Below are positions 37,960 to 50,847 of a DNA stretch of 64,000 bases, piece after piece. Position 1 is the first letter of the stretch. Every line of letters begins with the position of its first letter. This DNA comes from Rubripirellula sp. (GTDB taxonomy: Bacteria; Planctomycetota; Planctomycetia; Pirellulales; Pirellulaceae), in the NCBI GenBank assembly GCA_965216875.1, contig OZ244207.1:4000001-4064000 (forward strand), given 5' to 3'. The notes beneath the pieces are model-generated. The model saw only the letters and a program-made list of their open reading frames with translations, did not search any database and was not told where the DNA came from. Made by a program: the position numbers and the translations under genes.

Positions 37960-38274
37960 CCCTCGTTCCAACGCTCCGCGTGGGAACGCACTCTTCGGAC
38001 GCTCCGCGTCCACTTCACCTGAGCCGCTCGCGCTAGCGTCGGGCCCTTCGAGATATGCAGAACGCAATACGCGATCACCGCTCACCCATCTCCCACGCCT
38101 CACCTCAGTCGCTGAGCGATAGCGTGCGGTTTTCAAAACGGCAACCCGATGGGAAAACCGCACGCTATCGCGTTTCGGCTGACGCCGGCCGTGGAATTGA
38201 CGGTGCCTCGACGCTAGCGCGTTCGGCACGTGCCGTAGGCCGGATCAAGGAGCGACAGCGACGCGGATCCGGCA
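37960..38274. repeat. Composite REP mosaic
   Basis: CCTCGTTCC..GGACGCTCCGCGTCC, TGAGCCG..GCTAGCGTCGGGCC, a TCAG..GCGATAGCGTGCGGTTTTC / GAAAACCGCACGCTATCGC..CTGA inverted pair, and a GTAG REP at 38235. Confidence 0.8.
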
Positions 38275-38282
38275 AGCTCCAC

Positions 38283-39647
38283 TCACGCGATCGAAACGAC
38301 GGGTGGTTCTTTTTGCAAGGCATCCAGCGCGACCGGCAGGTACTCGGGGCTATCTTGAAGCAGCTGTTCCATGTGTGCCCGGGGATCATCGACCCAACGC
38401 GTGAACGCTTTGGCAAACAACTCAACGAATTCGTAATCACAGGCTTGCAGCGCGCGCAACAGATTGCGGTTGGCCAACTTGAGCGTCGCCTCAGGAACCG
38501 TTTCGAGTGTGCTGAGCGCGTAGACGCCAGCGAAGACGACATGACGTGCCGGACTTTCAAGCAGATGCGTGGCAACCTCAAGGGTGATGTCGTCCAGCTT
38601 TCCAAGTCGAGTCACCGTGCACATGGCCTTGGCACGGACTTCGTCATCACGGTGGTCCGACGATAGCTTGAGCTCTGCGACAATCGCTTCGCTTGCCACT
38701 TCTGGACATTGGCCTGACATTCTTTCAACCGCTTCGATCGCGTTCAACCGGATCGCTCGATTGGGTGATCGCAGTTTCTCGAGCACCAACGTCTCGTGCC
38801 GGTCGCTCAGTTTTGAACTCGATGACACGTGACGAAGGGCAATGACCTGCGAAGAAACGAACGGACTCGCAGCGAGCTCCCACCACTGAGGTTCCGACTG
38901 GTTGCACAGGCTCTGCTTCTTCGCCGGCTGGTAAAACGAGTCGTTGGTTTTGAGCAAGTATTTCAGCGAGCCTTGCATTGGTCGTTTCAGTTCGCCAAGC
39001 AGGTCGCTCGCCCAGTCCGGTTTGTTCGCTTCACGTGTCCATCCAGCAAGGGCGACTGCGTATGCCAGGCTCTGCGTATCGAGGAAGGGACGTGGCGCAA
39101 TGTTCCACTGGGTCGAGTCCCAAAACGTTGCAGCTTTTCCGACCAGCAAGACGCTGCTGCGCGGCATCCCCAATCCCGTCGCGATCACTGCCAGCTCGAC
39201 GACTTCGGGCAAGCGTGCTTCGGCGAGATCATTTTGGTGCAGCATGTCCTCGACAACGCCATGGATGAGTGTTGCCATCCCGAGCGCTGGCTCGCTGTCC
39301 AATTCTTCCGTCAATCGGATCGATCGTGTGCTTGGATCATATTGTCCCAACAGACCGCTGGGACCTTCGCATGAGCCGCCGCCTCATCCACCGCCGCCAC
39401 AACTGGCAGCTTTGGGTGAATGAACGACTTCGAATTGGACGCCCGAAGTGTCGTGGCGAAGATGGTCACCCAGGAAGCGAATGATGTCTGCCGGCGATTT
39501 TGAATCGACCCTCTCGACCAGCGACGAGAGACGCAAGATCGGCAGCTTCATACGTTCGAGCCCAATGCATTCGGCGATCTGCTGGAAATGGAACTCAATT
39601 CGCGCCTTCTCGGAGTCTGGCAAATTCGGCTTCGGCTTAAAAAACAC
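38283..39647 (-). CDS. Candidate selenoprotein: CGGGG-U-GGGSC motif protein with C-terminal HEAT-like repeats (ORF track splits it in two)
   Basis: ORFs 39384-39704 and 38283-39350 are in the same frame, separated only by TGA at 39384-39386. GTG start preceded by AGGAAG; SECIS-like hairpin downstream. Confidence 0.7.
39337..39374 (-). promoter_or_regulatory. Candidate bacterial SECIS element
   Basis: Upper stem GTCCCAGC/GTTGGGAC with loop GGTCT, lower stem TCATG/TATGA; loop 27 nt after UGA. Confidence 0.55.
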
Positions 39648-39973: not shown

Positions 39974-42025
39974 GTGCTCGCGTCTTTGAATCTGATTGTC
40001 GGTTCTCTGGTTGCCGCTGGCGTGTTGTCAGGCGTTCTTTTTTGGTGGTTCAAGCGAGACTGGTTTGCTGGATTGGGAGTCGCTGCTGCATCCGGCGCCC
40101 TTGCCGGGCTCATCACGCTTACATGGCCCGACCCTGGCCCTCTGGACGTAGAAGGCCAGCGGGAGGCGGCGCACCTGGATACTCGCAATCTCAGAGCGAA
40201 ACCGAACCAGTCCGACTTGGCTGACCAAAGGGCCGACCAAGAACGTCAACGGCGGTTGATGTTGGCGAGCGTCGAGACGTACGCCCCCTACCGGCCAGCC
40301 GAAAAACCGAGCGCGGGATACGTTGCATCGGATGCGTGTCGGGAGTGTCACAAAGAGAACTACGAGACCTGGCACGATTCTTATCATCGCACAATGACAC
40401 AAGTCGCCACTCCCGATGCGGTCTATGCGAACTTCGACAATCACGAAATCACGCTCCGAGGACGTCACTACCGATTGACGCGCAACGGCGAAGTATGTCA
40501 GGCGGAGATGTTTGACCCCGATTATCCGCCCTCGCCTCAAACGCGAATGAAAGTCCCACTTGTGATGGTCACTGGCTCTCACCACATGCAAGTTTTTTGG
40601 TATCCGGGCTTCGCACCGCGGACTCTCGGTCAATTGCCCATCGTTTACCTGAAAGAAACCCAGCAATGGATTCCGCGTCGTGCTGCGTTCTTGGTGCCAC
40701 CGGACGAGCCGGTTTCGAGTGAGCTTGGGCGTTGGAACGAAGGTTGTTCCAATTGCCATTCAACTCATCGACGCGAGCGTTGGCGCGAGCCCGGCACCTG
40801 GGATACCGAAGTTACAGAGCTTGGCATTTCCTGCGAAGCTTGCCACGGTCCAGGCGAAGAGCACATCGCTCTCCATCGGGCACAGGCGTCAGACATTCGT
40901 AATGACCCAATTATCAACCCAGCTAGTCTTTCACACGTAGCCTCTTCACACACCTGTGGACAATGTCATGGCAAAACATCTCTCAAGACAAGCGGCAGTC
41001 ACCTGAACGAGTCTGGGCACGACTTCCGCCCCGGTGACGACCTGAACGACACGCATCATATTTGGGAGCGTGACAGCAAGGTCGTGCGTGACTTTGTTGC
41101 GTCGATGAATTTTAAAGAGGGAGCCGACGCGGCGCTGCGGCGCGTTTATTGGGACGACGGCAACATACGAGTATCGGGCCGAGAGTTTAACGGCATGGCC
41201 CATTCGGCTTGCTTCCAACGAGGGGAGATTTCATGTCTATCCTGCCACCAAATGCATCAATCTGAATCCGACCAACGCGATCGAATGGAGTGGGCCAACG
41301 ACCAGCTTTCGGTAACCGGTTTGGATGACCATGCTTGCACACAGTGCCACAAAGCAAGCGACTACGGCGAATCGCACACTCACCATGCCGCAGCTTCAGC
41401 TGGCTCACGTTGCTACAACTGCCACATGCCTCATACGAGTTATGGGCTCATCAAAGCGATGCGCAGCCACACGATCACCAGCCCCATCCTGGCAAAAGAC
41501 TTGAAAGTAAAACGCCCCAACGCGTGTAACCTCTGTCACTTGGACCAAACACTACAGTGGACGTCAAACCAGTTATCGAAGTGGTACGGCATCGAAGAGG
41601 TAGCGGATCTTTCCGATGAGCAAAAGACGGTCGCAGCGTCAGTGATTGGACTGCTCAAAGGCGATGCTGGTGAGCGAGCACTTTGGGTTTGTTCGATGGG
41701 TTGGCAACCAGCGCAACAAGCCTCAGGCAACGATTGGATGGCGCCATTCCTAGCCCGACTGATGGTTGACCCCTATCCCGCAGTACGCTTGATGGCGCGT
41801 CGATCTTTACGAACCTTGCCGGGATTGCATGATCTTCAATTCAACGCCGTCGCACCGGAACCAGAACGAGAAAACGTCCTGGCAAGGACGCTCGCGGGTT
41901 GGAGCCACGAAGCTGTCAAAGACAAACGCCCCGCGATCCTGATTGAAGACACCGGACTACAGACCGACCGGATTGAGGCAATGATGAAGCAGCGGGATGA
42001 CACCCGAATCAATCTGCTTGAGTGA
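39974..42025 (+). CDS. Membrane-anchored multiheme (8x CxxCH) cytochrome c with C-terminal HEAT-like region
   Basis: CRECH, CSNCH, CEACH, CGQCH, CLSCH, CTQCH, CYNCH, CNLCH; two N-terminal TMs. Confidence 0.88.
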   Translation: MLASLNLIVGSLVAAGVLSGVLFWWFKRDWFAGLGVAAASGALAGLITLTWPDPGPLDVEGQREAAHLDTRNLRAKPNQSDLADQRADQERQRRLMLASVETYAPYRPAEKPSAGYVASDACRECHKENYETWHDSYHRTMTQVATPDAVYANFDNHEITLRGRHYRLTRNGEVCQAEMFDPDYPPSPQTRMKVPLVMVTGSHHMQVFWYPGFAPRTLGQLPIVYLKETQQWIPRRAAFLVPPDEPVSSELGRWNEGCSNCHSTHRRERWREPGTWDTEVTELGISCEACHGPGEEHIALHRAQASDIRNDPIINPASLSHVASSHTCGQCHGKTSLKTSGSHLNESGHDFRPGDDLNDTHHIWERDSKVVRDFVASMNFKEGADAALRRVYWDDGNIRVSGREFNGMAHSACFQRGEISCLSCHQMHQSESDQRDRMEWANDQLSVTGLDDHACTQCHKASDYGESHTHHAAASAGSRCYNCHMPHTSYGLIKAMRSHTITSPILAKDLKVKRPNACNLCHLDQTLQWTSNQLSKWYGIEEVADLSDEQKTVAASVIGLLKGDAGERALWVCSMGWQPAQQASGNDWMAPFLARLMVDPYPAVRLMARRSLRTLPGLHDLQFNAVAPEPERENVLARTLAGWSHEAVKDKRPAILIEDTGLQTDRIEAMMKQRDDTRINLLE

Positions 42026-50771: not shown

Positions 50772-50847
<76 letters not shown>

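Follow-up and report, generated by a model that had tools for sequence, protein, structure and literature searches.

A probable selenoprotein with a degenerate zincin-like domain and HEAT repeats in Rubripirellula

A frame of 454 codons on the minus strand of a Rubripirellula sp. genome raises the question of whether the TGA in its first quarter ends a gene or encodes selenocysteine (Sec) within one. The frame lies at positions 38283..39647 of a stretch of 64,000 nucleotides (nt), hereafter the window (assembly GCA_965216875.1, contig OZ244207.1, positions 4,000,001 to 4,064,000 of the forward strand), where an initial annotation made from the letters alone had proposed a hidden selenoprotein. 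In the read-through translation, the gene consists of 454 codons and a terminal TGA (38283-38285). Its GTG start (39645-39647) follows AGGAAG by about 9 nt and was chosen on the grounds that full-length homologues with Cys at the site in question (~458 amino acids, aa) begin at the aligned MFFKPK. From the GTG at 39647 to the TGA at 38285-38283, the frame holds a single in-frame TGA, codon 88 (39384..39386), which stands in the Gly-rich context AASCGGGG-U-GGGSCEGP, just as the annotation had read it. Gene callers split the locus, and the record for the window itself is a C-terminal fragment of 331 aa.

When 401 genomes from the same taxonomic family were searched in six frames (E <= 1e-30), 47 orthologues were returned, located in 46 of the genomes and in 12 of 126 genera. 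Codon 88 is TGA in 29 orthologues, TGC in 13 and TGT in 5. Neither Gly nor Trp, neither TAA nor TAG, nor any other residue or stop, was found at this codon in any of the 47. Both flanks of the TGA forms, the N-terminal 87 and the C-terminal 366 residues, are conserved in frame, and the two halves form one conserved protein. In the protein database, the full-length entries (~458 aa) are Cys forms, whereas numerous relatives have entries of 260-368 aa that begin immediately past the motif, as is usual for gene callers at a UGA. No strong match to the family was found in 24 genomes of other families of the same order.

The surroundings of codon 88 had been described by the initial annotation as a symmetric C-x4-U-x4-C motif. 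The U-x4-C part is conserved, with Cys93 present in 44 of 46 orthologues, but the upstream Cys is not: in the TGA forms it lies at -5 in 14 of 29, at -6 in 4 and is absent in 11. The only consensus general to the orthologues in this loop is U/C-G-G-G-[STAN]-C. Cys forms carry extra loop cysteines, arranged as CC or C-x3-C.

The TGA is not a peculiarity of one assembly. It is kept, with no difference at these bases, in assembled contigs of three public runs that cover codon 88. Assembled contigs of a near-identical strain from a second study differ at 8 of 1422 nt, none of them at codon 88. A second, deeper metagenome contig (12.8 kb) matches just the 38-nt Gly-UGA-Gly stretch at 39364-39401, with 3 differences, and is probably another organism's orthologue.

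The genome, a single contig of 8.26 Mb, possesses the complete Sec machinery, which the initial annotation had named as a check. A tRNA-Sec gene (selC) scores 71.5 bits and is called SeC, with anticodon tca, by ARAGORN, and selA (507 bits), selB (343 bits) and selD (249 bits) are all above their curated cut-offs. The three protein genes are clustered in the order selD, selA, selB at G000:C1:325282-330621, where the selD match falls within a 749-aa open frame, which suggests a fusion protein. Among the other genomes with a TGA form, selA was detected in 25 of 27, the two misses being 88% and 92% complete. By contrast, only 2 of the 18 genomes with a Cys form have selA, and both carry isolated Cys forms that are nested among Sec forms in the tree.

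Further in-frame TGA codons were seen elsewhere in this genome. Three AhpC/TSA-like frames, at G000:C1:6090313-6090681 (minus strand), 1772056-1772424 (plus strand) and 4481535-4481927 (minus strand), each contain one in-frame TGA with downstream hairpins. The TGA codons occupy redox-motif positions (FTGG-U-TKEC, HW-U-PHC and CLT-U-PPF), and the frames likely encode further selenoproteins. At G000:C1:5002400 (minus strand), an FG-GAP/VCBS-like repeat protein likewise has a TGA in frame (PVY-U-CIASSPQFVDYDNDG), and downstream of this TGA lies an 8-bp hairpin whose loop is GUU. This candidate is less certain because the 'hypothetical' FG-GAP candidates in Table S9 of PMC4807772 have Gly at the site in their closest homologue. 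In the four other Sec genes examined in this genome, the hairpin loop contains GU and lies 23-29 nt past the UGA.

A feature common to bacterial selenocysteine insertion sequences (SECIS), according to PMC1088965, is a hairpin that directly follows the UGA within the ORF (open reading frame) and whose small apical loop contains a G. A candidate element of this kind lies within the coding sequence at 39337..39374 on the minus strand, overlapping codons 95-103 (EGPSGLLGQ), and is identified by its fold, its pair counts and the counts of intact core and loop given below. The upper stem-loop (39344-39364), GUCCCAGC-GGUCU-GUUGGGAC, has an 8-bp stem. The hairpin itself begins 22 nt downstream of the UGA and the GGUCU loop starts 27 nt past it, as the initial annotation had it. 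The lower stem that had been described along with it, UCAUG/UAUGA (39370-39374 with 39337-39341), is present in the minimum-energy fold and is not conserved; it lacks covariation, and 27 of 29 TGA forms do not form its middle pair. The GGUCU loop may resemble that of E. coli fdhF. This gene is the paradigm of bacterial genes with an intragenic SECIS (Zhang and Gladyshev consensus), with which the locus shares the in-frame UGA, Cys homologues, a hairpin inside the ORF and the selA/selB/selC/selD set.

Comparison of the orthologues singled out this hairpin as a property of the TGA forms. Five of the seven core pairs (38/52, 40/50, 41/49, 42/48 and 43/47) are formed in all 29. Compensatory double changes are found at three pairs (CG to UA in 3 TGA forms, GC to AU in 3 and CG to UA in 4), and the closing pair switches between G-U and A-U. 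The covariation score of the 29 sequences is 0.170, against a shuffled mean of 0.125, and none of 500 shuffles reaches 0.170. Of the 17 distinct rows of Cys forms, 14 have lost pair 40/50 and 7 have lost pair 41/49. The 7-bp core is intact in 26 of 29 TGA forms compared with 1 of 18 Cys forms, and an apical loop of the form [AG]GU[CU]U is present in 29 of 29 compared with 5 of 18. Moreover, the Gly/Ser codon in the loop ends in U in every TGA form. When the whole 8.26 Mb were scanned with strict criteria (at least 60 open codons on either side of a TGA, 6 or more base pairs in the stem and, between +18 and +41, a loop reading [AG]GU[CU]U), only 4 sites were returned, codon 88 among them. The hairpin is a conserved RNA feature of TGA forms only.

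The 29 TGA and 18 Cys orthologues, the SECIS candidate of the TGA forms and the co-occurrence with selA make it very likely that UGA-88 encodes Sec, and we also consider it highly likely that the locus is one gene for the 454-residue Sec-containing protein that the initial annotation had postulated. Several observations count against this reading. The fold of 101 nt is unremarkable in stability (z = 0.16 against shuffles), and TGA and Cys forms cannot be told apart by their free local folding energy (mean -10.0 versus -9.5 kcal/mol, p = 0.77). Thermodynamics therefore does not discriminate, and the case relies on this particular helix with its loop. Since the helix lies over conserved codons, its conservation is partly that of the protein. 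The GU of its loop stands 31-32 nt after the U of the UGA, as against 23-29 nt in the four other Sec genes examined. The Rfam gathering scan of the whole window gave tRNA only and a permissive scan of 39250-39450 gave only a chance lncRNA match, with no SECIS model in either. The orthologues, furthermore, are kin, and their counts overstate independence. Were the TGA a true stop, the locus would hold two genes or a pseudogene and the hairpin would be incidental, in keeping with the split gene calls (331 aa here, 260-368 aa in relatives) and the unexceptional hairpin energy. It is, however, hard to see why 29 independent assemblies would then keep TGA at the exact codon with both flanks in frame while 18 have Cys, why TGA forms would track selA, or why the helix would covary in TGA forms only, and we judge a true stop to be very improbable. 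Read-through with another residue (Trp, Cys or Gly through a near-cognate tRNA, or a reassigned code) is just as implausible. The gene itself and other genes here end in TGA, the orthologous residue is always Cys, the Sec machinery is complete and the GU loop is like those of the other Sec genes of the genome.

What kind of protein, then, would carry this residue? The AlphaFold (AF2) models have a predicted local distance difference test score (pLDDT) of 90.8 at full length and 88.7 for residues 1-253. HEAT-like repeats had been recognized from the sequence, and these proved to describe the C-terminal solenoid but not the N-terminal half. The HEAT/ARM-like helical repeat domain comprises residues ~252-445 (38313..38894, minus strand). 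It is supported by a sub-threshold Pfam HEAT_2 match (E = 0.0013; 19.4 versus a cut-off of 27.7 bits), by the match of the family profile to alphaRep chains (E = 8.3e-9) and by Foldseek, which with the full model found HEAT/ARM repeat proteins only (alphaRep and armadillo, E ~1e-4). A sequence-profile search of the PDB returned nothing beyond repeat proteins. In the ESM Atlas, with a natural Cys homologue as the query, the nearest clusters are unnamed hypothetical proteins. By its appearance the protein would be cytoplasmic, and no signal peptide is visible by eye in the sequence.

Residues ~38-170 (39138..39536, minus strand) resemble a degenerate zincin of the minigluzincin/SprT-like type, as indicated by VIA-align matches and by homology to HExxH proteins. 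The top VIA-align matches of the N-terminal model are SPRTN (6mdx, Z 8.5), abylysin (Z 8.3), jannalysin (Z 8.0) and selecase (Z 7.7). Lower matches include Wss1, PprI, Ste24, BepA and M1 aminopeptidases, and zinc peptidases or zincin-like proteins account for the majority of the 50 matches listed. Likeness to the minigluzincins and SprT-like proteins (SPRTN, Wss1) extends over 92-100 aligned residues at a root-mean-square deviation of ~3 Å and includes the order of elements, namely a backing helix, a three-stranded sheet, an active-site helix and a Glu helix. In contrast to these proteins, the selenoprotein is without HExxH, shares only 10-17% identity with them and has an extra 26-residue loop and a HEAT domain. 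Because HExxH is absent, it should not be an active zinc peptidase of this kind. The M1 aminopeptidases (ERAP1, aminopeptidase N and LTA4 hydrolase; Z 3.7-5.4) likewise have a zincin domain followed by a helical ARM/HEAT-like domain, but the selenoprotein has neither their N-terminal beta domain nor HExxH, and the likeness is architectural only. The GxMEN motif, which we take to be a mark of M1 aminopeptidases, is also absent from it.

Two elements of this domain are central to what follows. The former active-site helix (residues 120-138, ATLIHGVVEDMLHQ; 39234..39290, minus strand) aligns with ATLAHELAHELLLG of the parent family; it has lost the catalytic Glu and the second His, and its Asp134 is invariant. 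Beside it is the Gly-rich loop (residues 75-100; 39348..39425, minus strand) with Sec88 and Cys93, which is flanked by strands 71-74 and 101-104. HExxH homologues have no counterpart of its inserted core, SCGGGGUGGGSCEGPSG, as seen both in the alignment and as a 19-residue BLASTP gap. Given moderate Z-scores and the lack of a significant Foldseek match, the fold assignment rests on structure and sequence jointly. On this basis the N-terminal half is likely to be a zincin fold that has lost HExxH, and we hold this with good confidence.

The relation to HExxH proteins was also apparent from sequence comparison. BLASTP aligned the selenoprotein with an HExxH homologue over its full length (E = 1e-15), the Sec segment being the 19-residue insertion. 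The HExxH of weaker homologues from related genomes, and that of a paralogue in this genome, sits exactly at helix 120-138. A profile search of 1.84 billion representatives yielded 1682 relatives at E <= 0.001. HExxH was present in 113 of the best 150 of these 1682, and 83 of the 113 are at least 400 aa long. Members of the parent family are either stand-alone domains of ~250 aa or proteins of ~450 aa with HEAT repeats. The family has no Pfam or NCBIfam model, just weak matches to Peptidase_M78 and SprT-like models (E ~0.005). An N-terminal C[PS]x motif occurs in 69 of the 113 HExxH relatives and is lost in the selenoprotein family. The paralogue, at G000:C1:1962333-1963106 (L037:1114-1887), is a 257-aa protein with an intact HExxH (GTMAHELAHL), an N-terminal CPVD and no Pfam or NCBIfam match. 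As a conjecture, its N-terminal Cys might be a cysteine switch.

We compared individual positions by aligning 46 orthologues with 110 HExxH relatives. At position 129, the first His of HExxH in the parent, the orthologues have His in 21 and Asn in 21 of 46. The catalytic Glu at position 130 is replaced by Gly (27), His (7), Ala (5) or Phe (4), and at position 133, the second His, the most frequent residues are Cys (17), Ser (6) and Arg (5). The third zinc-ligand Glu is kept, one column off: the parent has Glu at 147 in 110 of 110, whereas all 46 orthologues have Pro147-Glu148. At positions 62, 108, 134 and 179, which are variable in the parent, the orthologues have His, Arg, Asp and Thr, respectively, in 46 of 46 each, and Cys60 of the parent (87 of 110) is Gly in 45 of 46. 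The selenoprotein family agrees with the parent family in domain order, in homology over the full length and in the invariant residues Glu18, Tyr103, Gly158, Gly160, Trp181, Ala199, Trp203 and Arg205. It differs in having lost HExxH, C[PS]x and Cys60 and in having gained the U/C-GGG-S-C loop together with His62, Arg108 and Asp134. Of the 17 orthologues with Cys at position 133, 12 are among the 18 Cys forms and 5 among the 28 Sec forms, a pattern that fits either a redox arm or a metal centre.

These comparisons can be combined into a mechanism. UGA-88 would be decoded as Sec by the organism's SelB and tRNA-Sec, recruited by the SECIS hairpin inside the coding sequence. An ancestral HExxH-plus-HEAT protein would have lost its zinc site and acquired, directly ahead of the cleft-edge strand, the flexible Gly-rich loop (C)GGGG-U-GGGSC. 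Sec88 and Cys93 (U-x4-C) would form a redox-active selenenylsulfide on a mobile arm, and the arm could work within what remains of the substrate cleft, its target being a peptide or protein that the cleft and the HEAT solenoid hold in place. Since the loop precedes the strand that edges the zincin substrate cleft, Sec88 may be able to reach the former active site. A flexible, Gly-flanked segment with Sec beside Cys is known from thioredoxin reductase, in its C-terminal Gly-Cys-Sec-Gly arm, and the arm considered here would likewise be able to form a selenenylsulfide. The segment of the selenoprotein is, however, internal, has U-x4-C spacing, is accompanied by no flavin or NAD(P)H domain and has no homology to thioredoxin reductase. 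It also differs from the CxxU/UxxC selenoproteins of thioredoxin fold in that its U-x4-C lies in a Gly-rich loop and its model is that of a zincin-like and a helical repeat domain. A redox-active selenenylsulfide arm, as suggested by the conserved U-x4-C, the flexible Gly flanks and the statement of one review (PMC9312934) that redox reactions are the presumed field of action of most prokaryotic selenoproteins, is our preferred function, put forward tentatively and at somewhat less than even odds.

A number of results argue against such an arm in a zincin cleft. A zincin match of Z ~8 is 'middling' by VIA-align's own note, and Foldseek with the N-terminal model gave no match at E <= 0.001. Residues 84-92 of the loop have pLDDT < 50, and a docking site for them is not visible in the model. 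Two of the 29 Sec forms are without Cys93, no partner redox domain was found, and an all-against-all BLAST of flanking ORFs at the 47 loci gave no conserved neighbour, the best cluster covering 5 loci. The selenoprotein might instead use Sec88 as a ligand of a new metal centre, together with Cys93, Asp134, Glu148, His62 and, where present, His129 or Cys133; this centre would replace the lost Zn(His2Glu) site in a metalloenzyme, a metal sensor or a metal chaperone. The loop is inserted beside the former metal-binding helix, the gluzincin-type Glu148 is kept in 46 of 46, and His62 and Asp134 are invariant and family-specific. In addition, the lost second-His position is Cys in 17 of 46 orthologues, the Cys forms add their loop cysteines, and Sec may serve as a metal ligand in several predicted families, according to a 2026 review (PMC13188914). 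On the other hand, His129 in only 21 of 46 and a variable position 133 leave no fixed set of helix ligands, and no metal-handling genes are conserved near the 47 loci. We regard a metal centre as possible but rather unlikely. Less plausible again is a non-catalytic role, in which the zincin-like domain would be an inactive scaffold and the Sec loop would serve regulation or sensing, for example as a redox or selenium switch that sits in the cleft much as a cysteine switch does in a protease. The loss of HExxH and the flexibility of the loop fit such a role, and the loss of both C[PS]x and Cys60 hints at thiol-based control in the ancestor. But Sec is costly and is usually placed by reviews in active sites, the several invariant family-specific polar residues suggest a working site, and the cysteine-switch reading of the parent motif is a conjecture from matrix metalloproteases. 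We consider the regulatory role improbable.

The distribution of Sec and Cys was placed on a quick maximum-likelihood tree of 46 orthologues and one HExxH outgroup, built with the trait codon masked and with one partial row of 242 residues left out. In this tree every deep branch is Sec, and the Cys forms make up one clade of 16 and two singletons. At least three Sec/Cys changes are needed, and well-supported branches force at least two. The tree and the selA pattern together suggest that Sec is ancestral and that Cys replaced it upon loss of the Sec trait, mainly in one clade of genomes without selA. This direction is provisional because the root, to its disadvantage, hangs on a single very long outgroup branch.

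New selenoprotein families are reported regularly, and the literature was compared for this one. The initial annotation had not recognized the family as a known selenoprotein, and it matches no NCBIfam model and is absent from the selenoprotein catalogues compared. For the read-through protein, 0 NCBIfam families were found at E <= 1 in a model set that includes GOS_B (NF041374) and GOS_C (NF045500), and the Cys homologue gave a chance-level match only. The 2026 review (PMC13188914) assigns NCBIfam models to families that once had no name, GOS_B and GOS_C among them. Neither HEAT nor peptidase, nor any name beginning with Planctomyc or Pirellul, is mentioned in the main texts of PMC13188914, PMC12013277 and PMC13326102 (catalogues of 2025-2026). 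The family is likewise not among the compared entries of the 2022 family table, and GOS_A (PMC2398784), whose text has no sequence for comparison, might conceivably be the same family. Table S9 of PMC4807772 lists a 'hypothetical' selenoprotein candidate of planctomycete P1, with two split genes, a SECIS and a closest match in Rhodopirellula sallentina (Cys). An R. sallentina Cys form (P0030) is among the homologues of the selenoprotein family, and the P1 candidate, for which Table S9 gives no sequence, motif or description, may well belong to the same family. The recoding mechanism appears to be standard for bacteria and the protein family appears to be new, with the BSepDB family table outside this comparison.

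In the window, the gene is surrounded by an FtsX/ABC pair, an unnamed 273-aa protein and a divergent multihaem cytochrome, with no functional link. The divergent neighbour (39974-42025, plus strand; 683 aa) has eight CxxCH haem-binding motifs and Pfam matches to Cytochrome_C7 and C554, and is not kept beside the orthologues at the 47 loci. A long imperfect inverted repeat (38093-38194; 49-nt arms, 73% complementary, 4 nt apart) lies in the gap of ~400 bp that separates the stop of the gene from the minus-strand gene that comes next. This repeat could act as a terminator or belong to a repeat element, and a consensus terminator scan did not flag it. The sole over-threshold Rfam match in the window is a tRNA gene at 50774-50847 (minus strand).

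Collectively, the results raise the possibility, which we advance with reserve, that this is the first selenoprotein on a metalloprotease (zincin) scaffold, in which an ancestral HExxH zinc peptidase with a HEAT cap, having lost its zinc ligands and its conserved cysteines, evolved a new centre, catalytic or metal-binding, in the former cleft by placing Sec on a mobile loop rich in Gly. Sec would be ancestral and Cys the fallback where the Sec machinery was lost. If true, catalytic chemistry would have changed on a conserved substrate-binding frame. Public records of the TGA-form orthologues hold only the C-terminal 260-368 residues. For 28 or more genomes of this bacterial family, databases therefore contain neither the N-terminal domain nor the selenium site. 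The clean division of the family into TGA forms with selA in the genome and Cys forms without it offers a good marker for Sec-to-Cys replacement after loss of the Sec trait, and the gene gives entry to a large uncharacterized HExxH-plus-HEAT family (1682 cluster representatives at E <= 0.001). Sec would here occur outside its usual thioredoxin-like CxxU context, in a disordered Gly-rich insertion within a protease-like fold without a zinc site, and the family would provide a natural case of how a new active centre gets grafted onto an old scaffold.

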